DNA of 64,000 nucleotides from Myxococcaceae bacterium (GCA_035637895.1 DASRBA010000259.1:6714-70713); one strand, 5' to 3'; counted from the first letter of the stretch, positions 18,328 through 33,401 are shown. Program-made: numbers and translations. The notes: generated by a model from the sequence alone, not told the origin.

Positions 18328-19227
18328 GTGAGAAAGGTCTATCGCAACTCAAGTTACTCCATCTACCTTGATGACTGCTTGGAGTGGTTGCCCCGCCAAA
18401 AGGCGAACACGTTCCATGCCGTAGTCACAGATCCTCCATTTAGCACGCTTGAGTACAGTGCAAAGGAATTGCGGAAACGTCGCCGAGGACCCGGAGGTGT
18501 ATGGCGACTTCCACAAGCATCAGATGGCGCAATCCGACAGCCCGTTCCAAGATTCACGATCCTGAGTGGACATGACCACATCGGGGTGCTGGCGTTCCAC
18601 TTGCGCTTAGCGCCAGAGCTTCACCGCGTGTTGGTGCCTGGCGCGCATGTCTTCATTGCGAGCCATCCCCTCCTGTCACATCTGGTCGCACAGGCGTTCG
18701 GCATGGCTGGATTCGAGACGCGTGGTCAGATTATCAGGATCGTCAAGACGCTGAGAGGAGGGGATCGGCCGAAGCCCGACGACAAAGACTACAGAGGTTT
18801 GTCAGTCATCCCAAAATCGTGCTTCGAGCCTTGGCTTCTCTTCAGAAAGCCATGCAAGGGACGCGTTGTAGACAACTTAAGGCGCTATGGAGTTGGAGCC
18901 CTTAAAAGGCCGAGCGAGAAGGAGCCCTTCGCGGATTTGCTCAGTGTCTCTCAGACAAGAGCTTCTGAGCGACAACTAGGGGATCACCCTTCCTTGAAGC
19001 CCCAAGAATTGATGCGAAAGCTCGTACGAGCAGCTTTACCACTTGGGCAGGGAACAATCCTCGACCCCTTCATGGGCGCGGGCTCGACCATTGCGGCAGC
19101 GACGAACTTGGGGCTGCGGAGTGTGGGGGTTGAAAGCGACAAGACTTACTACCGATTGGCCAAAAGAGCGATTCCGAAGCTAGCGTGGTTCGAGGTGCCA
19201 GAAAGACCAACGGCGACAGTTGACTAA
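18328..19227 (+). CDS. DNA methyltransferase, beta-class N6-adenine/N4-cytosine type (motif IV DPPF before motif I FxGxGS)
   Basis: GTG start preceded by GGAGAAG. AVVTDPPFS at residue about 33 and DPFMGAGSTIAAA near the C-terminus. GC is markedly lower than the surrounding genome. Confidence 0.88.
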   Translation: MRKVYRNSSYSIYLDDCLEWLPRQKANTFHAVVTDPPFSTLEYSAKELRKRRRGPGGVWRLPQASDGAIRQPVPRFTILSGHDHIGVLAFHLRLAPELHRVLVPGAHVFIASHPLLSHLVAQAFGMAGFETRGQIIRIVKTLRGGDRPKPDDKDYRGLSVIPKSCFEPWLLFRKPCKGRVVDNLRRYGVGALKRPSEKEPFADLLSVSQTRASERQLGDHPSLKPQELMRKLVRAALPLGQGTILDPFMGAGSTIAAATNLGLRSVGVESDKTYYRLAKRAIPKLAWFEVPERPTATVD

Positions 19228-19880
19228 ATGCGTTTGGGGCTAAGCAGGTCCATTTGCTCTGCTGATGCTTTGGGGGCTTCTTGCAAATACACCCAGTTCT
19301 TCCGTAATTTCGCGATGCCCTTTCGGTCGAGAGTAGCCGTTCGGGTACCCAATTCACCTCGTGAATTGCGCCGAAAGTCAGCCCTGGTGACCTGAGCCAA
19401 GTATATCTCGGTAAACGTCATCGGCTTGCGATCCACGGCGGGCTCGGTCTCCCGGTCGATGCTGTACACAAACACGCACATCCACTGGTCGCGCGCTCCG
19501 TGGGTGTCGACCGCACCTCCCATCTTCCTAGTGGTCTTGATTTTCAAGCCCTGGGCGCCAGCCTTCACGCTGTTGCGCGGATACACGCCTTGCACCACTA
19601 GGTCTGGGTGGCCATTGAAGTACTTATTTTGGACCAGTGTTCGAGAATGCTTCGCCAGGCTCGCTGCCAGCATGTCTGATAGCAGTCCGGACATAATTGC
19701 GGGGCGAAGTGTGTCGTCCAGGCGGTGAAGACCCTTGCGGGTGAGAAGGAGGTTAACGTCAGAAAAGAAGTCGTACACGTCCTGAAGAGCCAGCTCAAAA
19801 TCCTTCAGGCGAAGTTCATATGGAAGCGCTCTGCCGGTGTTGAAGCTGGATGGGTTCGGGGTGTTCTTAGTGATTGGCAT
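19224..19880 (-). CDS. Hypothetical protein, candidate restriction endonuclease cognate to the adjacent methyltransferase (assignment by position only)
   Basis: 218-aa ORF convergent with the MTase and overlapping it by 4 bp at the stops. Low GC like the MTase. No recognisable family motif. Confidence 0.55.
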   Translation of the reverse strand: MPITKNTPNPSSFNTGRALPYELRLKDFELALQDVYDFFSDVNLLLTRKGLHRLDDTLRPAIMSGLLSDMLAASLAKHSRTLVQNKYFNGHPDLVVQGVYPRNSVKAGAQGLKIKTTRKMGGAVDTHGARDQWMCVFVYSIDRETEPAVDRKPMTFTEIYLAQVTRADFRRNSRGELGTRTATLDRKGIAKLRKNWVYLQEAPKASAEQMDLLSPKRI

Positions 19881-20051
19881 ATTCGAGGGAGCCTATTCTG
19901 CTGGACCTCCGATTCTGGCATAACTTGGCTCCTTGGAGAACCCAGGTCTTTAGCTGTTGTCTCCGTTGCGGATGCGGCCAAGCGCGAAAGACGGTGCAAA
20001 GTCGTGGGAATTCAAGAGTCTGTGTCGAAAGTTCGCGGATTCCTCGAAAGC

Positions 20052-21296
20052 ATGTATCCGGGCACGAAGCCCTTTGCGCGAGTGCGTGCTGTCCTCGAGC
20101 GAGTCGCAACGTGGCCGGGAGGGCCCGTGGCGATCGTTCTTCAGGGGCCACCGGGCGTAGGAAAGACGACCGCCGCGCGCGCCCTCGCCGTCGCCCGCGC
20201 TATCGCCACTGTTGACCCCGAGGTGCTCAATCTGGGGGAGGATCGAGCTGCGAAGATGGTGTTGCGGGACATCGAGATCGGTTGGTACCGCTCCATTTCC
20301 CTGCCCGGCCTGACCCCGTCATTAGCCGACAGCCAACTCTTTGGCCTAAAACCCAAGGGCGCAACGGACGTAGCTCCGCGGATTGGGCTGTTCGAGCAGA
20401 CCATGACCGGCGCTCGGGCCGGTTCCGGTGAATCGCACCAAGCCCTCATCCAGGAGGCACAAAAGGAGCGGCGCCGTATCAATCTCGTCACTGGAGGAGT
20501 CGTCCTCCTCGACGAGATCGGCGATGCACCTGAATGGGTGCAATTGAAGCTGCTTCGTCTGCTCAACGGGGAGCGAGTGGCACGTGTGCAAGGGGAAGGA
20601 GATCCTGATTACGAATTCTGTTTTCGCGGCATCATCGTGCTTGCTACCTGGCGGGAGCTTGACGGGAACAATGGGCTGCGGCCGGACTTCAAGCAAAGAA
20701 TCATAAGCAATCGTCTTCGGATGCCCAGTCTCTCAGAGTATCCAATTGAGGCTCGGCAGCGACTCGTTGTCTCAGTCGTCGAGGGCTCCAAAACAGCTCG
20801 AAGCGAAGCCCTGGCAGAGTTGGAAGGACTGTTCAGTGGGGCGGATGACCCGATCGCAAGCTCCTACCGCCTCGCGCTAAGCAAATCGAGGACGCTGACG
20901 ACCGCGGAGGTCACTGAGATCGCGAGTCAGGACTGGAGCCAACTGAGTGAGTTGCGCGGGCTCCGGGCCATTGTGCAGAAGGTCTATGACGGGTCCTCGG
21001 TCAAGGAGGCAGTCGCTGAGATTACCGATGAACTCCAAGCGCCGCAGGAAGGTGCTGTCCAAGAAGAGGCCGATCTAGCCCGATTCAAGCGGTATCTCTC
21101 CATGCCCGTGCCGCTCGCCACCGCGTTGCGGCAAGACAGCGTCGAGTGGGCAGGCAGGGTCAATAAACAACTGACCGAGCGCACCCACCGCTTCGATGAA
21201 GCCATCAGGAGCAGCGGGAGGAAGCGCGCTCAGGTCAAGAAGGACCTCGAAAACCTCCGACGCTCAAAAGCGAGTGGTCGACGCACTCCCAAGTGA
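20052..21296 (+). CDS. AAA+ ATPase, sigma54-activator-like core without GAFTGA loop or obvious HTH. Start uncertain (ATG 20052, or GTG 20004)
   Basis: Walker A IVLQGPPGVGKTT; Walker B VVLLDEIGDAPEWVQLKLLRLLNGERVARV...IIVLATWREL...DFKQRIISNRLRMPSLSEYP follows the bEBP AAA+ pattern. The track ORF start at 19725 overlaps the convergent gene, so the start was trimmed. Confidence 0.75.
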   Translation: MYPGTKPFARVRAVLERVATWPGGPVAIVLQGPPGVGKTTAARALAVARAIATVDPEVLNLGEDRAAKMVLRDIEIGWYRSISLPGLTPSLADSQLFGLKPKGATDVAPRIGLFEQTMTGARAGSGESHQALIQEAQKERRRINLVTGGVVLLDEIGDAPEWVQLKLLRLLNGERVARVQGEGDPDYEFCFRGIIVLATWRELDGNNGLRPDFKQRIISNRLRMPSLSEYPIEARQRLVVSVVEGSKTARSEALAELEGLFSGADDPIASSYRLALSKSRTLTTAEVTEIASQDWSQLSELRGLRAIVQKVYDGSSVKEAVAEITDELQAPQEGAVQEEADLARFKRYLSMPVPLATALRQDSVEWAGRVNKQLTERTHRFDEAIRSSGRKRAQVKKDLENLRRSKASGRRTPK

Positions 21297-21393
21297 GTGG
21301 CCGAACATCCGAGGAGCTTCGCCAACCCAGTGGTTCTGGGGTCTTGCAGAGCCAGAATGGGAGGCCCGCTGGTTGCAATTCAGTGGTCGCGAG

Positions 21394-21849
21394 GTGGCGT
21401 GCGCGATGATCAAGGTCGACGATGGCGAGCTACTCAGCGACATCCTCAAATGGTCGGTTGCTGGATTTGGCACCGCCTTCGAGGTGGCGGTTCCCTCTTT
21501 CGAGCCCTCCGGGTTGTTCTCGCGGAGCATGATGCAGGCGGCCGCTCTCGGGACGCGGGTCCGATTCTTCACCCGCTGGCCGGAGGAGAAGGACAAGCAG
21601 GACGCCTTGGCCCAGTTGATGGCTCACGATGTGGCCGTGGTCATCGTCCCCCACCTTCAAGCCCAAGCGGCGCTGCTGACCGATGAGTCCACCGGCCTGT
21701 GGTACGGCTGGGTCGAAGGGGTCGCCTTCCTGGGCTGCGGCGACGCCGAGGCCGTGTTGCTTCGGGAACTGCTGGAGACGATCGAAGATTGGGAGAGGGC
21801 GGCTAGCCGCGAGGTGCGGCGGCGCGCCTTCCAGAGGCGGCTGAACTGA
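21394..21849 (+). CDS. Small hypothetical protein (start uncertain: TTG 21373, GTG 21394 or ATG 21406)
   Basis: ORF in the operon gap between the AAA+ gene (ends 21296) and the P-loop gene (starts 21882), with protein-like composition (WFWGLAEPEWEARWLQF...). The portion of the track ORF upstream of 21296 overlaps the preceding gene. Confidence 0.5.
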   Translation: MACAMIKVDDGELLSDILKWSVAGFGTAFEVAVPSFEPSGLFSRSMMQAAALGTRVRFFTRWPEEKDKQDALAQLMAHDVAVVIVPHLQAQAALLTDESTGLWYGWVEGVAFLGCGDAEAVLLRELLETIEDWERAASREVRRRAFQRRLN

Positions 21850-21881
21850 AGCTAGCGGGTGGAGGAGAAAGGACAACGTCG

Positions 21882-23036
21882 ATGCAGAAGCGGATGTCGG
21901 AGTGGTTCTTCCTGAAGGACGAGTTCAGTTCGTTCATCGTCGACGCGCAGAAGCATGCGCAGCACCTGTGTGGTGTCGAGGATCGCAAGCTGCGCGACGA
22001 CCTGGCCCTTTCTTTGAGGGAGTGTGCCTACTCGCAGCGGGGTCACCATGCGATCATTTGGGGCAACGCCGGTCGTGGAAAGACACATCTAGCCCACCAT
22101 CTGGTGGTCACCGCTGTCGACAACCAGGCCATCCTGCCCATCTACGTGGACTGTCCGCCGTTTCCGTCGGCTAAGGCACCGCTCCACATGTTCTTCGGGG
22201 CGCTCCTCAAGTCGATTCCCTGGAAGACAGTCAAGGACTTCGTGGGCAAATACCGCGCGAAGGCAGAAAACGACTCGACGCTTGAGAAGCGCGTCCAAGA
22301 TGTACTCCAAGCAGACACGAACATCTACGACGCGATGGTGGAGGGACTGGGGATGGGAAAGGAGTCCTCGATCCGGAGTACTCTGGGCTGGCTTGGGGGC
22401 GAGCCCGGTGGGAAGGTGAACGCCGCCCACGAGGCACCCGAGCAGTTCACGGACGAGGGGCAATTAGCTCGCAACATCGGCGCGTTGGGGGAGATGCTCC
22501 TCATCGCAGAGGGAAAGAACCTCATTTTCTTGGTGGACGAAGCAGAGCGCTTTCAGACGATTGCCAGCGGAGAGCGTTACTGGATCTGGCTCTCCGCGAT
22601 TCGCGAGCTCTTCCGCCGGCCAGCTGTGGGATTGATCCTCTTTATCATCGCTCGGAATCGCGACGATATTCCAAATATCCTCTGGGAGGACGAAATAAGC
22701 TCAGTTATCGGTGGCAACAATATTCATGAGTCGGCGAATTTCGCGCAGCCGAGCGCCGAGAGCTTCCTCAAGGATCTGCTAGACACAGTGGTCAAGCGCA
22801 GTCCGGCGCCCACCGAATTGCAGAAGATTGTGCAGGAGAAGGGCGAGTCTCTGGAGACGTATCCTTTCACAAAATCCGCCTTCGAAGAATTTATTGCCCA
22901 CCATTCAATAGGCACGCTGACGAATATTCCACGAGCCATTATCGGGAGCCTTGAGCACTGCGCTCGTCGCGCGATGACCCTTGACAAGAAGTTGATCGAC
23001 CATGACGTCCTACGCAGGGTGATCGAAGGGGTCTGA
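21882..23036 (+). CDS. P-loop NTPase (Walker A GNAGRGKT, Walker B IFLVDEAE), unknown family
   Basis: HAIIWGNAGRGKTHLAHHLV and LIFLVDEAERF. 384 aa. Confidence 0.8.
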   Translation: MQKRMSEWFFLKDEFSSFIVDAQKHAQHLCGVEDRKLRDDLALSLRECAYSQRGHHAIIWGNAGRGKTHLAHHLVVTAVDNQAILPIYVDCPPFPSAKAPLHMFFGALLKSIPWKTVKDFVGKYRAKAENDSTLEKRVQDVLQADTNIYDAMVEGLGMGKESSIRSTLGWLGGEPGGKVNAAHEAPEQFTDEGQLARNIGALGEMLLIAEGKNLIFLVDEAERFQTIASGERYWIWLSAIRELFRRPAVGLILFIIARNRDDIPNILWEDEISSVIGGNNIHESANFAQPSAESFLKDLLDTVVKRSPAPTELQKIVQEKGESLETYPFTKSAFEEFIAHHSIGTLTNIPRAIIGSLEHCARRAMTLDKKLIDHDVLRRVIEGV

Positions 23037-23052
23037 AGGGCAGGGGAAGATC

Positions 23053-24414
23053 ATGGCCAGGATTAGAGTGGAATGCGAGCCGCGCATCACCTGGGATCCC
23101 GTCGTCGGCGGTCCGGGTGAGCAGTACGTCCACCTTGGCGCGGTCATCGACAGCGGGCGCCGCCGGACGGTCAAGTTTGACGCCGATGGGAATTTCGTCG
23201 TCTTGGAGGTCGGAAAACGAGGGAGTGGGAAGTCATTCGGATTGGGTTCGATTATGGAGGCCTTCGCCGCCGCCGCTGACACGTGCACCATTGCCAAGCA
23301 GAGCCCGAACCGGCGGGGTGTCCTGCTCTTGGACCCGCTGGATGTGCATTGGACCGCCATCTACCCCGTCCGGAAGGATGGTTCGGTCCACATGCAGGAG
23401 CAATACAAACTCCTGGAGCGTTTTCCAGAGGTCGCGGTCGAACCCATCAATGTCGCAGTGTACATGCCCGCCGGACGAGGTCGACCCGAGGACCCTGCTG
23501 TCTTCCGGGCATACCACCTTCCTGTCTGCGACCTCACGTCGGAGGACTTCGCGTTGCTCTACGGCGCGAACCTGGTGAGTGACCCGGCAGGAATGCTGAT
23601 TGGGGAAATCCACGACAAGGTGAGCCGGTTGGGGTTCACCCGAGGCGCCACCGACGTTCCTGCCAAGGAGGTCTTTGGCCTCCAGGACCTCATCGATTGC
23701 TTGCAGGATACGGACATACAGGCCAACTACACAGTGCAGACTCTGCGAGCCGTCCGGCAGCGCCTGCTGTCCTGGCTTCGCGATCCGCTTTTCCAACAGC
23801 CCTCCGGGACCCCGGTGACGGAACTGGTCCAGCCGGGGCGAATGGGCATCTTATGCCTCAACCGCCTCTCGGAAGAGATGCGTAACGTGGTCACCGCCGT
23901 CATCGTCCGGCGGCTCAAGGCGGATCGGAGCCGGGCGAGCAACCTGGAGCGTGATCGCGCCTTCAATCCGCACCCCCTCAATAGACCTGCGGGGTTACCG
24001 CGGACGATCCTAGCCATCGACGAGGCCCAAATGATCCTGCCGGCGACGGGAAATAGCCACGCGCGGAGCGCAATCGAGTCCTATGTCCTCGAAGGTCGAA
24101 ACTTCGGGCTCTCGATCTGGATGGCTACCCAACGGCCGCGAGGGGCCATCTCGGAAAGAGCTAAGAGCCAGATCGACACGCTAATCGTCCACAAACTATC
24201 CACGGCGGAGGATCTGGAGGCCGTGGCGGGTCTCCTCCAGTCTGCGGAGCCCCTCAAAATTAAGGTCAACGAGTCGGTGGTCCCCCTAGCAGAATTGACG
24301 CGCAGCCTCGATGTGGGGATGGCCATCGTCTCCAGCGGGAACGGGAACGTCCATCGCGCCTTCGTGGTCGAGATGCGGCCACGGGTCGTCGCCCACGGTG
24401 GCCAGGCGTTCTGA
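23053..24414 (+). CDS. HerA/FtsK-superfamily (DUF87-like) ATPase
   Basis: Walker A VGKRGSGKSFG, Walker B ILAIDEAQ, and the characteristic IWMATQRP...DTLIVHKL (ATQRP / arginine-finger region) seen in HerA/VirB4-like translocases. Confidence 0.8.
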   Translation: MARIRVECEPRITWDPVVGGPGEQYVHLGAVIDSGRRRTVKFDADGNFVVLEVGKRGSGKSFGLGSIMEAFAAAADTCTIAKQSPNRRGVLLLDPLDVHWTAIYPVRKDGSVHMQEQYKLLERFPEVAVEPINVAVYMPAGRGRPEDPAVFRAYHLPVCDLTSEDFALLYGANLVSDPAGMLIGEIHDKVSRLGFTRGATDVPAKEVFGLQDLIDCLQDTDIQANYTVQTLRAVRQRLLSWLRDPLFQQPSGTPVTELVQPGRMGILCLNRLSEEMRNVVTAVIVRRLKADRSRASNLERDRAFNPHPLNRPAGLPRTILAIDEAQMILPATGNSHARSAIESYVLEGRNFGLSIWMATQRPRGAISERAKSQIDTLIVHKLSTAEDLEAVAGLLQSAEPLKIKVNESVVPLAELTRSLDVGMAIVSSGNGNVHRAFVVEMRPRVVAHGGQAF

Positions 24415-24426
24415 CGAGGACCGGCC

Positions 24427-25707
24427 ATGCTCATCCCCCGTTTCTGCAACTACTACACCGATTACCAGCAGCGCTTGGGCTTCCTGAAGGTCTTGGCGAG
24501 AACGGGCGAAGGTGTGCGCGGGGGCCACGATCAGTACGTCGCTCGGCTAGAAGAACTCTACAACACTCGCGGCGCACGCCGGGGAAATCGACGGGCTGTT
24601 TTCGATCCGGAAGCGTTGCTTCAGCGCACTGAGATCCCCTCTTGGCAGGTGGGCTTCTACAAGCCTTACCTCGGACGCCTGGTCAACTGGGGCGAGATGT
24701 GCGGAATCATCGCCGCCAACGGCCGCCTCTCTGAATGGGCGCGCATCCTACTCATCATTGGCAAGGAACAATCGGAAGAACGAAAAGAAAACCCATTCAT
24801 CCTCTCCGAAGTCGAACGGGCCTTCTTCCTCCAACTCTTGTTGGTCCACGACCAGGTGCTGCGGGACCTGATCGTCAGCTTGGGCCAGCGTGCCCCAGGA
24901 ACACGGCTTGGCGTGCTGGAGAGTTGCTTGGTCACGCTGGATGCCCTGGGCTCCTTCGCTGACGGTATTCAAGGGCCAGGTATTGAGGCGGTGCAACTGC
25001 GCGTTGAGTTGCGCAACCTCCTCGAGCGCATCGCCAGAAAGTGGAAATTCGACCGTACGGCGTTCATGTCGCCAGACCGCCGGGCGGAGGCGCTGGCTGC
25101 CGTTCGGGAGGAGGGTTCACGAAGGAAACCACGCAACCGGTTGCTGGAGATGAACGCCATCTGCCGCTTCGAACAGCTCACCGACCTAGGCTTGCTGGTC
25201 AAGGAGCCCGCGGGCCGACGAGACTTAACTGGTGAGCAACGGCGCGCCGTGCGGACGGGGTGGGACTGGGAGGTGGCTCCTGGCCTGAACGACATGGCCT
25301 ACCGGCTCGCCTCGAACGCGTCGATAACAGAGATCCTCACCCACCATTGGATCGAGGTGTCGACCTGTGGGATGGGACCGGCACCACTAAAGGAGCTCCA
25401 GAAGGCGGAACTGGTCGAGGTACTGGATCGCGTGTTGCCGATGGCGCGTCGGCAGCTGGGGCCGGTCCAGGTCCATACCTGGGCGACGCTCGCTTCGCTG
25501 GAGGCGCTGCGCGGCCATGGCCGGCTGGAGATTGGCCAGGTCCACGAACTATTGGACGCACTGCAGCGAGATCCTGGCGCTGGCGACGTCATCCGGCAGG
25601 GCGGACGGCCGGATTTCTTGGGGCGGACCGCAGTGGTCTCCAGGGGTGGCTTGTCCTCGCTTCTTAGCTCCCATGGATCCGAGCGGCGAGGAGGCGACCG
25701 TGTCTGA
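24427..25707 (+). CDS. Hypothetical protein (defence-operon component, no recognisable domain)
   Basis: 426-aa ORF starting 13 nt after the HerA-like stop, with protein-like composition. Confidence 0.7.
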   Translation: MLIPRFCNYYTDYQQRLGFLKVLARTGEGVRGGHDQYVARLEELYNTRGARRGNRRAVFDPEALLQRTEIPSWQVGFYKPYLGRLVNWGEMCGIIAANGRLSEWARILLIIGKEQSEERKENPFILSEVERAFFLQLLLVHDQVLRDLIVSLGQRAPGTRLGVLESCLVTLDALGSFADGIQGPGIEAVQLRVELRNLLERIARKWKFDRTAFMSPDRRAEALAAVREEGSRRKPRNRLLEMNAICRFEQLTDLGLLVKEPAGRRDLTGEQRRAVRTGWDWEVAPGLNDMAYRLASNASITEILTHHWIEVSTCGMGPAPLKELQKAELVEVLDRVLPMARRQLGPVQVHTWATLASLEALRGHGRLEIGQVHELLDALQRDPGAGDVIRQGGRPDFLGRTAVVSRGGLSSLLSSHGSERRGGDRV

Positions 25708-26488
25708 TGAGTTTCACACCGCATGGATGGCCAGAATGCAGCAGGCAGAAAGAACGGCAAAGGACGTCATCGACATCTGCTCGAAGCTCCCGGCGAACCC
25801 CTTTGAGGCCCGAGCGCGCCTCCACAGTACCGCCAGCAAGCTCGAAGCGTCAGGCTTGCGTCCGCTGGCTCCCCCGATGGACTTGGTGCGCCATGTTGAG
25901 GACGAATGCGTGCGGGCGCGGGCTGAGTTCTGGGACCAGATGGCCGAGGCCTGCCGCCGCAAGGAATGGCCGATCGACGGCTCCACAAACCGGCGCCTGG
26001 TGGGTCGAGGGCTGATAATTGAGCTAACCGACGACGAAGTGCGCATCGATGAGATTTCACTCCGCCTTTCTCCTCACGCAGCTTCGGTGGTGGAGGTAAT
26101 CGCTGGCGAGGTCAGCGCATTGGTGCCGACGGACTTCAACCCTGAAAGATATATGGCCTTGCTGGTAACGGCTTACGACGCGGCCCCGGGCGGAGTGGAG
26201 AAGCCGCTGGAGGCGGTCTACCGAGCTGCCGTCTTTGCTTCTCAGAAGTCGGCGTTCTGGAAGGGGCTCAACCCGGACCATTTCGTGCGGTTAACGCGTC
26301 CCGCGTTCCGGGCGCGACTGGCCCGCTTGCTTCATCTTGGCACACGGACCGCAGACGGGCGGGAGATCAGGTTTGGGAGCACTGTCGTCGCAAAGGACGC
26401 CTGGGAAGTCTATTCCCCTGGCGAGGAACGGCTAGTACAGGTCGGCCGTATCTCGTTGGGTTACGCAGGTAGCCAACATGAACATTGA
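25673..26488 (+). CDS. Hypothetical protein (start uncertain: ATG 25673 overlapping the upstream gene, or ATG 25727)
   Basis: ORF continuing the operon. Its 3' end overlaps the next gene's start by 11 nt. Confidence 0.65.
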   Translation: MDPSGEEATVSDEFHTAWMARMQQAERTAKDVIDICSKLPANPFEARARLHSTASKLEASGLRPLAPPMDLVRHVEDECVRARAEFWDQMAEACRRKEWPIDGSTNRRLVGRGLIIELTDDEVRIDEISLRLSPHAASVVEVIAGEVSALVPTDFNPERYMALLVTAYDAAPGGVEKPLEAVYRAAVFASQKSAFWKGLNPDHFVRLTRPAFRARLARLLHLGTRTADGREIRFGSTVVAKDAWEVYSPGEERLVQVGRISLGYAGSQHEH

Positions 26489-27785
26489 CCAAGTTGATGA
26501 GTCGGAAGCGCGGCGAATCCTCCGTTCACTGCGCTCAGGTGCCACGCCCACTCAGTACGCCAGTCAGATCTTCGTAGGGCAGGGACCCTGGTTCGATACC
26601 GCGCGGAAGATGATGCACGACACCGCAATAGATGAGGACTTTGAGGTGCGGTTCCTCCGAGCCGCCTACGGCGGCGGCAAGACACTGTTCCTCCGCTGCC
26701 TCGAGGAGGCGGCCCGGGCCGACGGATGGGTCACGGCTTACGTACTCCTCAAGCAGGGCTCTGTGGAGTTGGACAAGTTCGACACGTGGGTGCGAGAGGT
26801 GGCACGCACCGTTGAGTTTCCTGACGCAAGCCGAGGGATGAACACTCTGCTAGAGCGGGCGATGGCTACGCACCTGAAGTCCCACGGCTATGATCCTAGC
26901 CGTGCTACTTCCTTGAATGTCCTGGAGCGCGCCGGAGAGGGCCTCGCGAAATTCTGCCGCGGGAGGGCGCTCGAATACGATTTCTCCTTAGCCCTACGTG
27001 CGACCCTCGAGGCCCGCTTTGAGCGTGACGAAATTCGACTCCATGAGATTGCCAAGTGGCTGAGTGGAGGATCTGAGAGACTGGCGGTCGACCCCGCCCG
27101 TTTCGGTTCGAACCCGCACCGCCCGGCTACGCGAGCTGGAGCAGTCCAGCTGAAACAGCTAGGACCGGGGACGGCCGATCAGTTGCTCCGGCTCCTGGCT
27201 CTGCTGACGAAGATGAGCGGGCAAAAGGGCCTGATGCTTTCCTTCGATGAGGTCGAATTGATCGGCACGCTTCCGGAGAAGCGATTGAAAATTGCACTCC
27301 AGACGCTTCGGGAGTTGGTCGATCACACGGATCCGGCTCTGGAACCGCCCTCGACGTGCCTGTTCGTGGCCGCGACGCCAGAGATGTTCGAGAGCCCGAG
27401 GATGCTGCCCAGTTACAAAGCGCTCCAGGACCGAGTCGACAAGCTTCCCACCTCGCGGCGTGGTCCCCCTAATCTGCGCGGTACGGTGATTGACCTCGAC
27501 GCGACCGAGTTAGGCGAAGGCGACCTCGCGGCACTGGCAGAGCGCATCATGGCGCTGTACCGGAAGAGCGGGGAGGACGTGCCTCCCAACTTGGATGGGC
27601 AGCTAAAGGAGTTGGTCAAGACCATCACGGTACGTCGCTACAGCATCGCCCGGCCGCGACTCTTATGCCGGTGCCTGCTTGACATCTTAGACGGCAAGTT
27701 CGGGGCCGACATGCCCCAGGAGATCGCTGCCAGGAACGAGCAGATGACGAAGGAACGTCAGACAGAGATGAGGGTTAAGGCGTGA
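26478..27785 (+). CDS. P-loop ATPase, BrxD/DUF2791-like (family recalled, not searched)
   Basis: N-terminal EARRILRSLRSGATP box followed by Walker A AAYGGGKTLFL and Walker B LMLSFDEVE. 435 aa. Confidence 0.75.
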   Translation: MNIDQVDESEARRILRSLRSGATPTQYASQIFVGQGPWFDTARKMMHDTAIDEDFEVRFLRAAYGGGKTLFLRCLEEAARADGWVTAYVLLKQGSVELDKFDTWVREVARTVEFPDASRGMNTLLERAMATHLKSHGYDPSRATSLNVLERAGEGLAKFCRGRALEYDFSLALRATLEARFERDEIRLHEIAKWLSGGSERLAVDPARFGSNPHRPATRAGAVQLKQLGPGTADQLLRLLALLTKMSGQKGLMLSFDEVELIGTLPEKRLKIALQTLRELVDHTDPALEPPSTCLFVAATPEMFESPRMLPSYKALQDRVDKLPTSRRGPPNLRGTVIDLDATELGEGDLAALAERIMALYRKSGEDVPPNLDGQLKELVKTITVRRYSIARPRLLCRCLLDILDGKFGADMPQEIAARNEQMTKERQTEMRVKA

Positions 27786-28855
27786 GTAGCCGCGACTCCT
27801 CTGCCCGACGGATCGTCCGCGCGCTGCGAAGCGGCGTAGCCAGTCCAGAGTCAGTGGTTCGCATGAAGATCGGAAGCGAGGAGATCGAGGCCCAGTTTAA
27901 TGCCGCGTTCGACGCCTTCCTGCAGGGCGGTCAGACGCCCGGCCCGATACTTTTAGAAGGCGACTGGGGGTCGGGGAAAACACACATCAAAACGCTGCTG
28001 CGCCATGAAATGCGGCGCCGCCAGATTCCGCATGTAGCAACCGCTCTTGGCCGTTACCAAGGCTCTCTGGCCCACCTGCACTTGACTGTGCCACAGTGGC
28101 TCACAACGGTCGACTTCGGGGGCGCGCGTGGACTGCGCGCCGCCCTGGACGCTGGCATTCTGTCTCCGGGCGGCACCCACGCCTGGGCCAATACTAAGGT
28201 CACGCCCTTCGCGGAAGGCTTACGATGGGCGTTAGGGGGCTGGGACGAGGCTGGTTGGCTGCGTGCGCTCGGACATTGCTACGCCATGCCGAACCAAGGC
28301 TACCAGCACTGGAAGGCGCTCGACTTAGTATTGTCGGCCGGGGAGTACGTGGCGACGGTCGGTGGAAGGGGAATCGCCCTCCTTTTGGACGAGGCCGAAA
28401 ACGTCTGCTTACAGCACGACATCAGGGGACGGAGGCGTAGCTACGATGCGCTGCGCCGGCTGTATCTCAGTCAACACTTCCTATTAACCTTGTTCGTGAC
28501 GGCACGGTTTCTCGATCAGGTTCAACAGGACTGGAGGCAGGGCCTGGCCTCGGGCTGGGTCTACTGGACGGAGGAGGCTCGTGAATTCGTCTCGAATCTG
28601 CGCCACATGACGCGCTTGAAGACGCCGGCCCTGAGGCTGAGCGACGCCAAGGAGTTGGTGCGGCGCATTCATGCTGTCTACCAGGAAGCATACGGGCCCA
28701 TTTCGTTCGCTACCTCGGAGGCGGACATCCTCCGGGCGTGGACGCGGACCCCAACTCACTCCGTGCGACTGTTGATCCGCTTGACCGTCAGCGATCTGGA
28801 CGTTGCGGCCGGGGTAACATCGACACGGACTCTAAATGAAGAGTCGGTTGCCTAG
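27782..28855 (+). CDS. P-loop ATPase, paralog of the preceding BrxD/DUF2791-like gene
   Basis: Same N-terminal box SARRIVRALRSGVASP, Walker A GDWGSGKTHIK, Walker B IALLLDEAE. 4-nt overlap (ATGA) with the upstream paralog. Confidence 0.75.
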   Translation: MSSRDSSARRIVRALRSGVASPESVVRMKIGSEEIEAQFNAAFDAFLQGGQTPGPILLEGDWGSGKTHIKTLLRHEMRRRQIPHVATALGRYQGSLAHLHLTVPQWLTTVDFGGARGLRAALDAGILSPGGTHAWANTKVTPFAEGLRWALGGWDEAGWLRALGHCYAMPNQGYQHWKALDLVLSAGEYVATVGGRGIALLLDEAENVCLQHDIRGRRRSYDALRRLYLSQHFLLTLFVTARFLDQVQQDWRQGLASGWVYWTEEAREFVSNLRHMTRLKTPALRLSDAKELVRRIHAVYQEAYGPISFATSEADILRAWTRTPTHSVRLLIRLTVSDLDVAAGVTSTRTLNEESVA

Positions 28856-29146: not shown

Positions 29147-30028
29147 TTATGCACCGAGCGTAGCAAGCAGCGGGATGGCACGGGTGGCGGTGTCGAAATG
29201 GGTGGCGTCCAGTTCAATGCCGATGCTGCGGTAGCCAACCGCGACGGCGGCGGCAATGGTGGAACCTGCGCCCATGAACGGGTCCAAGACAACGCCCTCA
29301 CCGAGCGGCAGCGCGGCGCGAACGAGCTGGCGCATGAGAGCCTGCGGCTTGAGCGACGGGTGGGGCGCGATGGCGCGCTCCTTCTTGTGGGTGGGCGAAG
29401 ACCGGATAACGTCGACGAAAGGTGCATCCTCCGAGATGCGGCGGAGGCCGCCAGTCTTCCACTTGCGGAGGTTGTCTTGGACGCGGCCTTCGCAGGGCTT
29501 GCGGAACAGGCCCCAGGGCTCCCAACAGGAGCGAGGCATCACGGTGACGTTGGCGAACTCCTCGTGTGCGTTTTTGGGACGGTCGCCACCGCGGAGGGTC
29601 TGCACGAGGCGGATGATCTCCCCACGCTTCTCGAAGCCAGCACCCGTTAGCGCTTGGTAAAGGACATGCGAAAGCAGTGGGTTCGTGGCGATAAACATGT
29701 GGGCGCCGGGAACGAGCACGCGGTAGGCGCGCACAGCGAAGTCTGCGAAGAATCGTCCCAGTGCCTCAAGGTCATCGACCGTAAGCACGGTGAAGCGCGG
29801 CAGGGGACTTCGCCTGGAGCCGTCGAATGACGGAGGAATCCGCCAGACGCCGCCGCGGTCTCGCCGGAGCTTCTCCTGCTCCCGCGCAGAGTACTCCTTC
29901 AGACCATACGGTGGGTCAGTGACAATTGCGTGGATGGAGTCGGGTGGTTGCGCGTCCATCCACCCCAAACAGTCTCCTTGGTGGATGGTGTGGCTGGCAT
30001 CGAACGCTAGCGCGGCCAGAGCGGTCAT
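29147..30028 (-). CDS. DNA methyltransferase, beta-class N6A/N4C type, paralog of the 18328..19227 MTase and in inverted orientation
   Basis: AIVTDPPYGL (motif IV) and DPFMGAGSTIAAA (motif I). Collinear with MTase-1 along the whole length at about 55% identity by eye (RDRGGVWRIP, LPRFT, RVLVPGAHMFIA, NPLLSH, LRGGDRPK, HPSLKPQ, LVRAALPLG). Confidence 0.88.
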   Translation of the reverse strand: MTALAALAFDASHTIHQGDCLGWMDAQPPDSIHAIVTDPPYGLKEYSAREQEKLRRDRGGVWRIPPSFDGSRRSPLPRFTVLTVDDLEALGRFFADFAVRAYRVLVPGAHMFIATNPLLSHVLYQALTGAGFEKRGEIIRLVQTLRGGDRPKNAHEEFANVTVMPRSCWEPWGLFRKPCEGRVQDNLRKWKTGGLRRISEDAPFVDVIRSSPTHKKERAIAPHPSLKPQALMRQLVRAALPLGEGVVLDPFMGAGSTIAAAVAVGYRSIGIELDATHFDTATRAIPLLATLGA

Positions 30029-30064: not shown

Positions 30065-30526
30065 TTAATTTCCGTAGTGACCTTCCTCAAAGTCCCAGAT
30101 TCCCCCTTGCTCGCCCTGTTCCAGGACCGAGTAGACGGCATGGACGTCGGCCTGCGGGGGGACATCGACCGCCCGGAGACATCCAGATCCCTGCTCAAAA
30201 GTGCATCCTAGCTCCGACAGCCGCGCCCACCACTCCCCGACTCGGCCGGCTTCGGCATCGTTGTTGAGCATGACGCGGTAGGTGGAGTGGCCGCCGCGGA
30301 TCGACACACTTTCGAACTCGAACAGCCCGTCCGCAGGGTGCGCAAAGACGACGTCTTCTGCGCTCACCCCGAAGGCGTAGAACGGCACGTTGCGAAGTCG
30401 CAGTCGGCGCTCGTCGATGCGTTCCGCCCAGAGTGTCTCGGTCGCTGAGCCATGCCATGCCCCCGGCTCCAACTGGAACCGCACCTTCACGAGATCGCCT
30501 TCGGCACGGTGGTGATCGGCCGTCAT
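30065..30526 (-). CDS. Candidate immunity protein for the upstream HNH toxin (DUF4265-like, recalled)
   Basis: 153-aa ORF whose start overlaps the toxin's stop by 4 nt. Acidic, Trp-containing composition (ETLWAERIDERRLRLRNVPFYAFG). Confidence 0.55.
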   Translation of the reverse strand: MTADHHRAEGDLVKVRFQLEPGAWHGSATETLWAERIDERRLRLRNVPFYAFGVSAEDVVFAHPADGLFEFESVSIRGGHSTYRVMLNNDAEAGRVGEWWARLSELGCTFEQGSGCLRAVDVPPQADVHAVYSVLEQGEQGGIWDFEEGHYGN

Positions 30527-31692
30527 TTGGCACCTTGGAGGTGCTCTTCCGTGGTCTTTGCGCCCTTCTCCAAATTACAAGTCCGACAGGTGTTCTGAGC
30601 GTTGTCGATCGTGTTGTTTCCTCCCCGCGACTTGGGCTGAGCGTGGTCCGTGTTCCGTTGGCTCGGTCCTGGTTCGTCGGTGGTCTCCTTGCCACAGAAC
30701 ACGCATTTCCCATCCGCGTGGGACTCAGCAGCGTCCTTGGTCTGTGGAGAGAATCTCTTGCCCGCTCCGGGTCCGCCGGACGCTCCCGCCTTGGGACCAG
30801 CGGACATGGCCACCGCGCCGCCGAGGTCGATGACCACGCTCCCATTCGCCGCGAGCGTGAGGGAGCGGGTGCCTTCAATTTCGGGAATCCGGAAGCCTTG
30901 TGCCTCCGCCAGCGCGGCAGCTCTCGAGCCTCCGGGGAGGTCGAGGGCGCTTCCCTTGAACAGCCCCGCGAACTTGGCGACGCCATACGTGGCGACCATC
31001 ACCACGATGCGCCCCACCGTTGGGCCCATGCGCTGTCCGTAGTGGATGCCGGCCACTCGGACGCCCGCGAAGTCCCGAGCGAGCTTCAGTTCGTCCAGCA
31101 TGGAGATGAAGCCCTTCACCACATTGTTGAAGACGTCCACCCCCACGAAGGCGATCAGGTTGCTCATCGAGACCATGAACAGAATCTTCGTGACCGGCTC
31201 AGGAGAGAGCAGTTCCACGATCATCCCCAGGAACAGCACGCTCAACATCGCGCGCACCTGGTCAGCGGTCATGGAACGGACCGCGGAGGCCGCATCCTCC
31301 AGTGCCTCAGCGAACGCGAAGTGCAGGGCTACGAAGGTGGCGCCTTCGTCATCCAACTCGCCTGAGGCGTTCAGGTCGTCCCAGCAATCGAACCGCTTGC
31401 CGGTGATGTGGTGGCACCACCGGAGGTACCCCTCGGCCTTGAGCCGCTGCATCGGGTCATCGCCAGCGAGGATGAACCGCGGTCTTCCGTTCTTCGGCAG
31501 ACCAGGAAGCGGGCCGTTGGCGTACAGCATCCGCATCCCTTGCTGGAGCTCCTCGCGGCTGAGGTCCACGGGCTTGTATCCGCCCGGACGGATGACCAGC
31601 ACCGACGGCGCAGAGACACGGCGTTGCTGGACCGGCAGCCCAGGAATGGCCGTCGAGCAAGCGCACAGGAAGGTGACCACCCACACAGCCAT
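30523..31692 (-). CDS. Lipoprotein polymorphic-toxin-like protein with C-terminal HNH nuclease domain
   Basis: Start trimmed to the ATG at 31692, giving MAVWVVTFLCACSTA (lipoprotein signal). The C-terminus CVFCGKET...DHAQPKSRGGNNTIDNAQNTCRTCNLEKG is a classic HNH (C..C...DH..P.S.GG.N..N....C..CN..K). Confidence 0.72.
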   Translation of the reverse strand: MAVWVVTFLCACSTAIPGLPVQQRRVSAPSVLVIRPGGYKPVDLSREELQQGMRMLYANGPLPGLPKNGRPRFILAGDDPMQRLKAEGYLRWCHHITGKRFDCWDDLNASGELDDEGATFVALHFAFAEALEDAASAVRSMTADQVRAMLSVLFLGMIVELLSPEPVTKILFMVSMSNLIAFVGVDVFNNVVKGFISMLDELKLARDFAGVRVAGIHYGQRMGPTVGRIVVMVATYGVAKFAGLFKGSALDLPGGSRAAALAEAQGFRIPEIEGTRSLTLAANGSVVIDLGGAVAMSAGPKAGASGGPGAGKRFSPQTKDAAESHADGKCVFCGKETTDEPGPSQRNTDHAQPKSRGGNNTIDNAQNTCRTCNLEKGAKTTEEHLQGAK

Positions 31693-31733
31693 GGTCTTCG
31701 GCCAGCCGAGCATGCCGGCATTATGGTCTACGC

Positions 31734-33401
31734 GTGCTCGGTCCACTCATGCGGGTCGCGCTCTCCGTGGGCGCCTCCCGTTTCCGCGGGAAGTTCCTCT
31801 TCGATACCCGGCGCGCCCAGGCGGTGAATGACGCGCTCCTCATGGGGCTGCTCCGGCGGAACGAGGGCACCGTCTACGGACGGCGGTACGGCTTCTCGCG
31901 GCTCTCGACCCCGGACGGCTACCGCGCCTCCGTCCCGCTCACCTCGTACCCGGACTACGAGCCCTACGTGGCGCGGATCGCCAGGGGCGAGCAGGGCGTG
32001 CTCACCATGGAGCCCGTCCACCACCTCGGGCTCTCCTCGGGGACCACCGGCAAGCAGAAGATGATCCCCATCACGCGCACCGCGCAGCGGCAGGTCGCGC
32101 TGAGCATGGTGTTCCTCTCCCAGGGAATGCTGAACGCCGCCCTCCCCGCCTCCCGAGGGCGCGGCGTGCTGATGATGAGCGCCGGCACCAGCGGCAAGAC
32201 CGAGGCGGGCATCACCTATGGGCCGGCCACGGCGAGCGGCATGGCCTCCATGATCCGCATGAGCAAGCACCTGTGGACCACGCCGCCGGACGCGCTCGTG
32301 CTGCTGGACCAGCGCACCGTGCTCCACCTCCACCTGCTGTTCGGGCTCAAGGAGCGCGACCTCCGCTACCTGAGCGCGACGTTCGCGTCGTCGATCATGG
32401 ACCTCTTCCACCTGCTCGAGCGCGCCGGCCCGGTGCTCGCGGAGGAGCTGGCGACCGGGAAGCTGTCCGACGAGCTGAACCTCTCCGGCGAGTCGCGGGC
32501 GCGGCTGGAGGCGGCCCTCGGCAAGGATCCCGGGCGCGCCAGGCAGCTCCTGGACGAGCTGGCGCGGGGGCACGACGGGATCGCCAGAAGGCTCTGGCCC
32601 CGGCTCGAGTACGTCAACACCGTCACCGGTGGAAGCTTCGCCGTCTACGCCCAGAAGCTGCGCCCGTACCTCGGAGGGGTGCCGCTGTTCTCGTCCGTCT
32701 ACGCATCGACGGAGGGAGTCATCGGCGTCGCCACGAAGTCCGAGGACACCAGCTACGCCATGGTGCCGTCCGCGTGCTACTTCGAGCTGCTGCCCGCCGG
32801 CGAGGTGGACTCCGCGGCGCCGAGGACGGTGACGCTGGAGGAGGCACAGGACGGCGAGCACTACGAGGTCGTCCTCACCAACCGTTCCGGGTTCTACCGG
32901 TACCGGCTGGGGGACATGGTGAAGGTGGTGGGGCGGCTCCATCGGACGCCGGTCGTGGAGTTCCTCTTCCGGCGCGGTCAGCTCCTCAACCTCTCCGGCG
33001 AGAAGACGTCGGAGCAGGCGGCGCTGGCCGCCGTGATGGACTCCGCGAAGCGGTGGGGAACGCCGCTGATCGACTTCACCACGCAGGCGGACGCGGATGC
33101 CGCGCCCGCCAGGTACGTGTTCTTCGTCGAGGTGAAGGAGCCGGCGGCGCTGGTAGGGCGCGCGACCGCCGCGGATGACCTGGATCAGGCGCTCGGGAAG
33201 GCGAATCCCCGGTACGAGGCGGCGAGGGAGGCCGGGAAGCTGGGGAGGCCTGTCCTTCATCCGGTGAAGCCGGAGACGTTCGCGCGGGTGAAGGCGCTGC
33301 TGATCGAGAAGGGCGCGTCGATCAACCAGGTGAAGATCCCGCGCGTGGTCGGCGCCGGCGACGTCCTCCAGCTCCTCCGGGCGTCAGGCGCCGGCGTGTA
33401 G
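31734..33401 (+). CDS. GH3 family (auxin-responsive GH3-like acyl-adenylate) protein
   Basis: GTG at 31734 (or ATG 31749). LTSYPDYEPYV...LGLSSGTTGKQKMIPIT... matches the GH3 N-terminal adenylation motif region. 555 aa. Confidence 0.8.
   Translation: MLGPLMRVALSVGASRFRGKFLFDTRRAQAVNDALLMGLLRRNEGTVYGRRYGFSRLSTPDGYRASVPLTSYPDYEPYVARIARGEQGVLTMEPVHHLGLSSGTTGKQKMIPITRTAQRQVALSMVFLSQGMLNAALPASRGRGVLMMSAGTSGKTEAGITYGPATASGMASMIRMSKHLWTTPPDALVLLDQRTVLHLHLLFGLKERDLRYLSATFASSIMDLFHLLERAGPVLAEELATGKLSDELNLSGESRARLEAALGKDPGRARQLLDELARGHDGIARRLWPRLEYVNTVTGGSFAVYAQKLRPYLGGVPLFSSVYASTEGVIGVATKSEDTSYAMVPSACYFELLPAGEVDSAAPRTVTLEEAQDGEHYEVVLTNRSGFYRYRLGDMVKVVGRLHRTPVVEFLFRRGQLLNLSGEKTSEQAALAAVMDSAKRWGTPLIDFTTQADADAAPARYVFFVEVKEPAALVGRATAADDLDQALGKANPRYEAAREAGKLGRPVLHPVKPETFARVKALLIEKGASINQVKIPRVVGAGDVLQLLRASGAGV

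Follow-up and report, generated by a model that had tools for sequence, protein, structure and literature searches.

An eight-gene operon with five ATPases in a Myxococcaceae genome: a candidate defence cassette related to HerA/FtsK capture systems, with a nuclease predicted to be dead

Introduction

Two predicted kinds of system lie closest to the locus analyzed here. The 'HerA/FtsK capture' systems (Rakesh, Aravind & Krishnan, NAR 2024, PMC10853773) bring together Orc/Cdc6 ATPases, an inactive and an active restriction endonuclease (REase) and winged helix-turn-helix (wHTH) proteins, and the BREX (bacteriophage exclusion)-related capture (BRC) systems (NAR 2026, PMC12839542) comprise PglZ, DUF6079, a STAND NTPase, DUF4007, HerA and, in a subset, GNAT and TGT, the STAND NTPase being an active BrxB homologue that neighbours HerA. 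BrxC_BrxD is classed as Orc/Cdc6 in the second of these papers, and both link a multi-winged-helix reader to DndG, SspB, FokI and BrxA. Here we describe an operon of eight genes, A to H, on the + strand at positions 20004-28855 of a 64,000-nt stretch of DNA from a Myxococcaceae bacterium (GCA_035637895.1 DASRBA010000259.1:6714-70713), hereafter the window.

We think it probable, though well short of certain, that the operon is a single copy of a conserved cassette able to move horizontally, and that the cassette specifies an ATP-driven machine for the surveillance and restriction of invading phage or plasmid DNA, of the HerA/FtsK capture type and with BREX-like sensing parts. If it is a working defence system, this widely scattered eight-gene machine joins a reader and ATPases of the BREX type, a HerA motor and a phospholipase D (PLD) nuclease of the DISARM type, which have so far been seen in separate systems, and it offers a setting free of PglZ and PglX in which to study the roles of BrxA- and BrxD-like proteins, an open question in BREX.

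A conserved eight-gene operon

The operon was delimited from a listing of open reading frames (ORFs) and from gene prediction carried out independently on a second assembly of this DNA. Both call sets agree on eight co-directional genes, all with open reading frames, and the D and E proteins are 100% identical to VFA20_20950 and VFA20_20955 at NCBI (contig of a Myxococcaceae metagenome-assembled genome, MAG). Genes A and B are separated by 109 nt, B and C by 32, C and D by 16 and D and E by 12, while E-F, F-G and G-H overlap by 35, 11 and 4 nt, respectively. A sequence-only reading of the window had announced nine co-directional, tightly packed genes with gaps under 40 nt inside a low-GC island. 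The extent of the operon, its co-directionality and the spacing of every junction except A-B hold; the genes number eight, as they do in that reading's own list. The island is equally real, since GC content drops to 56-64% across approximately 18-32 kb between flanks of 70-75%. A scan of the operon for sigma70 promoters and terminators was uninformative.

Related loci were collected by searching a single genome per species with the alignment of D and by looking up homologues one by one, which together yielded about 25 loci, and gene order was mapped using tblastn and hidden Markov models (HMMs). The order A-B-C-D-E-F-G-H is kept in about 14 of them, across at least seven phyla. These loci come from Acidobacteriota, Planctomycetota, Myxococcota (Archangium), Burkholderiales (Betaproteobacteria), Alphaproteobacteria (Bradyrhizobium, Sphingopyxis, Sphingomicrobium and Phenylobacterium), Gemmatimonadota, Thermodesulfobacteriota and Nitrospira (Nitrospirota). 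Conservation of the order across phyla indicates that the operon is real, far beyond chance. Variants also occur: gene A is inverted and gene B absent in L002 and L024, the F-G-H block is inverted in L012, and L011 and L015 are truncated.

Five products of the operon (A, C, D, G and H) are P-loop ATPases with intact Walker A and B motifs, and the sequence-only reading had recognized each of them for what it resembles. Gene A (20004..21296; 430 aa) encodes an AAA+ ATPase of the NtrC/bacterial enhancer-binding protein (bEBP) type (Pfam Sigma54_activat, 4e-10) that matches NCBIfam bEBP models and, in the PDB, the sigma54 regulators 7vbs and FleQ. Its GTG start at 20004 is favoured over the alternative at 20127 proposed by the other caller, since homology reaches residues 3-18 of the longer form. 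A had been described as sigma54-activator-like without the GAFTGA loop and HTH, which is correct: in the family alignment the sigma54-contact loop reads GATDVA where activators read GAFTGA, and neither a receiver domain nor an HTH was found. Gene D (23053..24414; 453 aa) encodes a HerA/FtsK-family ATPase with the motifs GKRGSGKS, IDEAQ and ATQRP. It matches HerA (1e-10) and mad8 (5e-16) in PADLOC, the HerA_antiphage and HerA repair models of NCBIfam and, over the ATPase core, the defence HerAs 9c1m, 8xau and 8ziq in the PDB; 324 homologues of D were found.

The other three ATPases resemble one another. Gene G (26478..27785) encodes a BrxD-type AAA+ ATPase of the Orc/Cdc6 clade that matches Pfam BrxC_BrxD over 398 residues (6e-34) and PADLOC BrxD (2e-31). 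Scoring 106 bits with NCBIfam BREX_BrxD, for which the cut-off is 350, it is a predicted homologue of BrxD and not an equivalog; G has no PDB sequence match, and Pfam, a sequence-level search, detects no inactive REase insert in it. Gene H (27782..28855; GDWGSGKT, LLDEAE) encodes a shorter paralogue (Pfam BrxC_BrxD, 2e-10; G-H hhalign 99.7%, E 2e-26, 335 columns), and both proteins carry the N-terminal box RRI(L/V)R(S/A)LRSG by which they had been identified as a BrxD-like tandem pair. In gene C (21882..23036; GNAGRGKT, Walker B LVDEAE), AAA_22, AAA_16 and nSTAND3 all fall below the Pfam cut-off, NACHT is also sub-threshold and mad8 matches weakly; hhalign relates C to G at 96.6% (E 7e-10) and to H at 94%, and relatives of C show a faint BrxC_BrxD match. 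By these profile comparisons C belongs in the Orc/Cdc6-STAND neighbourhood as a remote paralogue of G and H, which brings the paralogous BrxC/BrxD-type ATPases of the operon to three.

Genes E and F of the window have no HMM match in Pfam, PADLOC or NCBIfam, and both products had been reported as having no recognizable domain. For F (25673..26488; 271 aa), a fast-evolving protein that begins with a helical hairpin and ends in an alpha/beta part, this description still largely applies, Foldseek returning nothing significant against the PDB. It does not apply to E (24427..25707; 426 aa). The structure model of this all-alpha/winged-helix protein has a predicted local distance difference test (pLDDT) value of 91, and its fold, of the FokI-recognition-domain/BrxA/SspB-like multi-wHTH type, matches FokI, N.BspD6I, a BrxA-like structural-genomics protein, BpuJI and SspB, while at the sequence level E matches neither a PDB entry nor DUF4007. 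On the strength of the model, E is presumed to be a multi-wHTH reader of DNA. Its family is rare: of 1.84 billion cluster representatives, 238 match at E <= 1e-3.

Relation to known defence systems

Like the capture systems, the cassette combines a HerA/FtsK ATPase with one or more Orc/Cdc6-clade ATPases, a fast-evolving multi-wHTH protein related to DndG, SspB and FokI, and an endonuclease; both are mobile and lie in defence-type neighbourhoods. In the window these parts are D, G (together with H and C through hhalign) and the multi-wHTH protein. The two differ in that the capture systems have an inactive REase within the Orc/Cdc6 protein along with an active REase, whereas the nuclease found in the cassette family, inactive in the window, is a separate protein of the PLD/HKD type; no REase domain was detected in the operon of the window. 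The cassette is further set apart by a bEBP-type AAA+ protein and by Orc/Cdc6-type ATPases that occur as three individual paralogues.

The cassette resembles the BRC systems in having HerA, an ATPase of the BrxC/D type and a tripartite DNA binder like BrxA. It differs from them in the presence of a PLD nuclease and a bEBP AAA+ protein and in the lack of PglZ, the large DUF6079/BrxC protein, GNAT and TGT, the last four of which were not found in the operon using Pfam and PADLOC. The only full-coverage plasmid relative of D is the HerA of a haloarchaeal BRC locus (L026; 25% identity, E 6e-19), which also encodes TGT, a 1363-aa BrxC-like protein and GNAT and, unlike the window, has PglZ and DUF6079. 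Comparison of E with the first ORF of a BRC locus was abandoned, as the two show no similarity and the ORF is TGT. The motif (L/E)PIYVDCP is common to C (window 22110-22140, residues ~79-97) and to the unannotated protein encoded directly upstream of HerA in L026 (6871-8013). hhalign relates these two proteins at 46% over 20 columns only, and the shared motif may reflect an old pairing of C-like and HerA genes.

Membership of better characterized systems can be rejected. G is a clear member of BrxC_BrxD and E has a BrxA-like fold, as in BREX types 2 and 6, but PglZ, PglX, PglW and the BrxHI helicase are missing: PglZ has no match in any ORF of the operon or its flanks (Pfam, PADLOC, NCBIfam), and neither a PglX-type methyltransferase nor the PAPS reductase that stands in for it in type 4 is present, the methylases of the region being small N6_N4 type II enzymes. 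The Sir2-HerA and DUF4297-HerA systems likewise place a HerA-family ATPase beside a small effector enzyme. In the cassette, however, the effector is a PLD protein, six further genes are conserved, D is shorter and matches those HerAs by sequence over only ~85 residues, and neither Sir2 nor DUF4297 is found in the operon (Pfam, PADLOC). MADS, the methylation-associated defence system (bioRxiv 10.1101/2023.03.30.534895), also has eight genes and an association with methylases, and D matches its mad8; yet MADS spans ~22 kb and encodes different proteins, including a kinase and specificity subunits not found in the cassette. Its authors' model makes mad6, mad7 and mad8 all mandatory, and with mad6 and mad7 absent (PADLOC) the mad8 match is generic. 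Proteins of the B family match the PLD models DrmC of DISARM (defence island system associated with restriction-modification), ZacB of Azaca and DpdK of Dpd. The nuclease domain is all that these systems have in common with the cassette, their partner genes being absent, and DISARM was rejected for that reason.

PADLOC gives only generic matches: D matches mad8 and HerA, G and H match BrxD, and B, E and F have no match. In a literature search with thin coverage of subscription journals we found no paper with this gene content, so that 'undescribed' is provisional, and the combination of a PLD protein, a bEBP and three BrxD-type ATPases is mentioned neither in PMC10853773 or its supplement nor in PMC12839542. 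The claim of the sequence-only reading that the operon maps onto no system that can be named nevertheless goes too far, since the predicted HerA/FtsK capture and BRC kinds fit a cassette with a PLD nuclease in which E is like BrxA and C, G and H are like BrxC/D. Judged by domain content, the cassette appears to be an as yet unnamed variant of the predicted HerA/FtsK-Orc/Cdc6 (BREX-related) systems with a differing gene set. The same reading denied the operon any PglZ, helicase or nuclease partner; PglZ, PglX, Sir2, DUF4297 and helicases are indeed absent, while a nuclease partner exists in the form of B, a PLD/HKD nuclease in relatives though dead here. Its interpretation of the block as a candidate defence system is reasonable.

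Loss of the nuclease active site

In relatives, gene B encodes a protein with Pfam PLDc_2 and the motif LHAK...(G/T)SxN(L/F)T, which matches the PADLOC models named above and PLD3, BfiI and Nuc in the PDB. Gene B of the window (21406..21849; 147 aa) encodes a degenerate single-domain homologue of these PLD/HKD nucleases with no match in Pfam, PADLOC or NCBIfam. It aligns with the family over its full length, but LHAK has become LQAQ, both the catalytic His and the catalytic Lys being Gln, and 15 residues that include GSxN are deleted in frame, where the closest relative, L023, has GSHNLTLSSERTSME. The alignment reads RLHAKAALLTD...GWVGSHNLTLSSERTSMELGVAF in L023 and HLQAQAALLTD...GWVE---------------GVAF in the window. 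The HxK(x)4D...GSxN catalytic motif of PLD/HKD nucleases, present in relatives, is therefore missing, and the B protein of the window is predicted to be catalytically dead. In Thermodesulfobacteriota, the PLD gene of L013 (8312-8776) reads LNAK for LHAK (His to Asn); by alignment, the family has lost its catalytic histidine independently a second time. Where B is absent, in L002 and L024, a 124-aa gene takes its place; it was considered as a PLD gene and rejected.

That the window copy is a decaying, non-functional remnant, heading for loss since its effector was inactivated, is an explanation of some weight that we hold to be unlikely all the same. B has lost the His, the Lys and the GSxN segment and is the gene that has diverged most from L023 (49% identity, compared with 58-80% for the others), as a remnant would lead one to expect. 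Against it, no reading frame of the operon is interrupted, and the other seven proteins keep all Walker motifs and 381 of the 391 positions that are at least 90% conserved in the family, conservative changes being ignored. Moreover, B and F are the fastest-evolving genes even in relatives in which B is intact. With seven near-intact genes beside a B protein that has lost its active site, the window copy is predicted to be non-nucleolytic, and thus either disabled or reduced to a DNA-binding or translocating activity that does not degrade DNA.

Possible control by gene A

The sigma54-contact loop of A is degenerate throughout the clade of the window (family alignment) and canonical or nearly so in other relatives, reading GAFTGA in L001 and L021, GAFTGS in L008, GAYTGA in L012 and TAYTGA in L010; L006 has GAATGV. 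Perfect TGGCAC-N5-TTGC sites lie 55-59 nt upstream of A in L001 (7022-7036) and L010 (7009-7023), and sites with one mismatch lie 42-74 nt upstream of A in L006 (2444-2458), L008 (3383-3397) and L021 (7036-7050). An equally good match occurs in only 0.7-5% of random 330-nt windows, depending on the locus, and four of the five loci with such a promoter (L001, L008, L010 and L021, the exception being L006) keep a near-canonical loop. In the window itself, the best sigma54 promoter match upstream of A has four mismatches, and sigma54-type matches over its whole length number 37 against 61 expected from shuffled sequence, which is below chance. This distribution suggests that the ancestral A was an activator of its own operon that lacked a DNA-binding domain, and that the putative self-gating circuit is gone in the window. 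If true, one clade would gate an immune operon through sigma54 and a bEBP, an unusual form of control.

Proposed mode of action

From domain content we infer a defence role for the cassette, an order of events and parts for A, E and F. DNA would be read by E, with its BrxA/FokI/SspB-like multi-wHTH fold, and perhaps by F. The Orc/Cdc6-type ATPases C, G and H, as relatives of BrxC and BrxD, would assemble on the DNA that has been read or scan it, after which a hexamer of the HerA protein D would translocate the captured duplex and the small PLD/HKD nuclease B would cut it, as DrmC, BfiI or Nuc do. A, a bEBP-type AAA+ protein stripped of further domains, would be the switch. Where GAFTGA and the sigma54 promoter are kept, A probably gates transcription; where both have been lost, as in the clade of the window, A probably works directly on the complex or is controlled in another way.

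Several points weigh against this interpretation. The capture class to which we assign the cassette is itself only a computational prediction, and the PADLOC v2 HMMs make no system call for the block. The family is rare and nearly all of its members come from MAGs, so that pseudo-operons are possible. The clade of the window has neither the sigma54 site nor GAFTGA, so the regulatory part of the model is not directly transferable to it, and the fold assignment of F, whose resemblance to winged-helix proteins is weak, is insecure. Finally, the dead nuclease of the window, the His to Asn change in L013 and the absence of B from L002 and L024 together imply that cutting by B may not be an essential output of the cassette. 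The dead nuclease also weakens the window copy as one to clone, for which an intact relative is suited, such as L023 or the locus of Bradyrhizobium sp. 168 (GCA_023073655.1, JADPJY010000053.1, 701-722 kb).

A bolder version of the capture-type reading, to which we give little credence, would make the cassette a new, self-contained class of defence in which a BrxA-like reader and three BrxD-type ATPases load HerA onto foreign DNA for a PLD nuclease. In one clade, a sigma54 promoter and a sensor-less bEBP encoded by the cassette itself would keep the machine silent, and the lineage of the window would have become a nuclease-independent, BREX-like blocker of invader DNA. Were this so, the cassette would be a simpler genetic handle on the recognition of non-self DNA by BrxA/BrxC/BrxD-type parts without PglZ or PglX.

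Neighbouring methyltransferases

The operon had been described as bracketed by DNA methyltransferases, and two N6_N4 methylases, 56% identical to each other, do flank it: MT1 (18328-19227, + strand) upstream and the solitary MT2 (29147..30028, - strand) downstream. They appear to be mostly part of the island context. MT1 (PADLOC MTase_II, 1e-92) is convergent, with a 4-nt overlap, with a gene for a 218-aa REase-like protein (19224-19880, - strand; PADLOC REase_II, 9e-4; no PDB sequence match). On 4.9-kb ColE1-type plasmids of Klebsiella and Citrobacter, an unannotated ORF likewise converges on a DNA methyltransferase gene, and its product shares 65-67% identity with the 218-aa protein. Given this shared arrangement, MT1 and the 218-aa gene are most simply a separate type II restriction-modification (R-M) module and probably form a system apart from the cassette. 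Plasmids of Gordonia and Ralstonia also pair a relative of the 218-aa protein with a methyltransferase.

The neighbouring methylases could instead be integral to a methylation-guided R-M or BREX-like system, Dcm and Vsr serving one clade and N6_N4 enzymes the window, in which the methylase marks self and the eight-gene machine restricts unmarked DNA. We regard this as doubtful. In its favour, nine loci of four phyla (L001, L008, L010, L011, L012, L015, L016, L017 and L021) have genes for Dcm (a C5 methylase, PF00145) and Vsr no more than ~2 kb from the cassette. These loci form a more distant clade whose D proteins are 45-49% identical, and the Dcm and Vsr genes are still adjacent after inversions of A or of F-G-H. 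Most Dcm-bearing loci have no recognizable cognate REase, the contig carrying P0003 has an N6_N4 methylase beside its cassette in the same layout of an MT1-type gene and a convergent gene, and the proteins that E resembles, BrxA and SspB, belong to modification-dependent systems. On the other side, six loci (L003, L005, L013, L020, L022 and L023) have no methylase within 5-10 kb, MT1 has its own small REase-like partner, a 287-aa ORF beside Dcm in both L010 and L016 could be Dcm's own REase, and the Dcm-bearing loci may share ancestry, in which case they are not nine independent observations. A link between methylation and the cassette is thus possible in the Dcm clade and unproven for the window. 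In L001, the Dcm and Vsr genes lie on opposite sides of the cassette.

Alternative, improbable functions in mobile elements or repair

Cassettes of this family are found among toxin-antitoxin, restriction and transposase genes and not within conjugative or secretion machinery, as the sequence-only reading of the block as a defence system would have it. Neighbours include RES-Xre, Fic, Gp49/HTH, PIN and HEPN genes (L021), a homologue of Menshen NsnA (L010) and an AspBHI-like type IV REase (L007). In L003 and L013 the cassette stands alone directly between housekeeping genes, which argues that it is self-contained.

It is very unlikely that the genes serve a mobile element, as an Orc/Cdc6-type target-selection or DNA-pumping apparatus (TnsC/MuB/IstB-like) that works with a HerA/FtsK translocase in the element's transfer, segregation or transposition. 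Transposons and conjugative elements do use Orc/Cdc6-clade ATPases and HerA/FtsK pumps (PMC10853773), insertion sequences, transposases or an integrase occur near some copies (L001, L008, L022 and L024), and the block lies within a low-GC island. However, the cassette has no conserved companion among transposase, integrase, relaxase or replication genes, and relaxase, type IV secretion system and replication genes neither adjoin it nor recur among the loci. Its flanks differ at every locus, neither a tRNA gene nor terminal repeats were found at the borders of the window's island, and the cassette is absent from 50,697 phages and essentially absent from 72,556 plasmids.

A module for DNA repair or stress under sigma54 control, in which HerA and a nuclease process the cell's own damaged DNA under a bEBP by HerA-NurA-like end resection, would accord with the work of HerA alongside nucleases in archaeal double-strand-break repair, with the HerA repair models matched by D, with the sigma54 promoter and GAFTGA-bearing A of some relatives and with Vsr and a DNA glycosylase near the cassette in L001, but it is most improbable, because the family is rare and patchy over seven phyla in islands of foreign GC content among toxin-antitoxin and R-M genes, a defence-like and not a core-repair pattern, because NurA and Mre11/Rad50 are absent, and because a BrxA/FokI-like reader and ATPases of the BrxD type are characteristic of restriction-like systems.

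Other observations

At the far end of the low-GC island, following the R-M pair, the operon and MT2, genes on the - strand at 30065-31746 encode a 407-aa protein tipped with an HNH endonuclease domain and then a DUF4265 protein, by domain content a toxin/immunity pair of the polymorphic type. On the Aulosira laxa plasmid AP018310.1 (L025, 8145-13539), a 279-aa protein, BrxD, a BrxD-like protein and a DEAD-box helicase are encoded in that order directly after a type-2 BREX locus. The tandem BrxD pair resembles G-H, but with a helicase present; the 279-aa protein preceding it was compared with F and set aside (hhalign 13% only). A DUF2130 protein adjoins the cassette in two distant lineages (L001, 17349-18578; L002, 2737-4125; L024, 5328-6716) and is 40% identical between the two clades. 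In L002 and L024 this protein and the 124-aa ORF follow the inverted gene A, and the PLD gene is missing.

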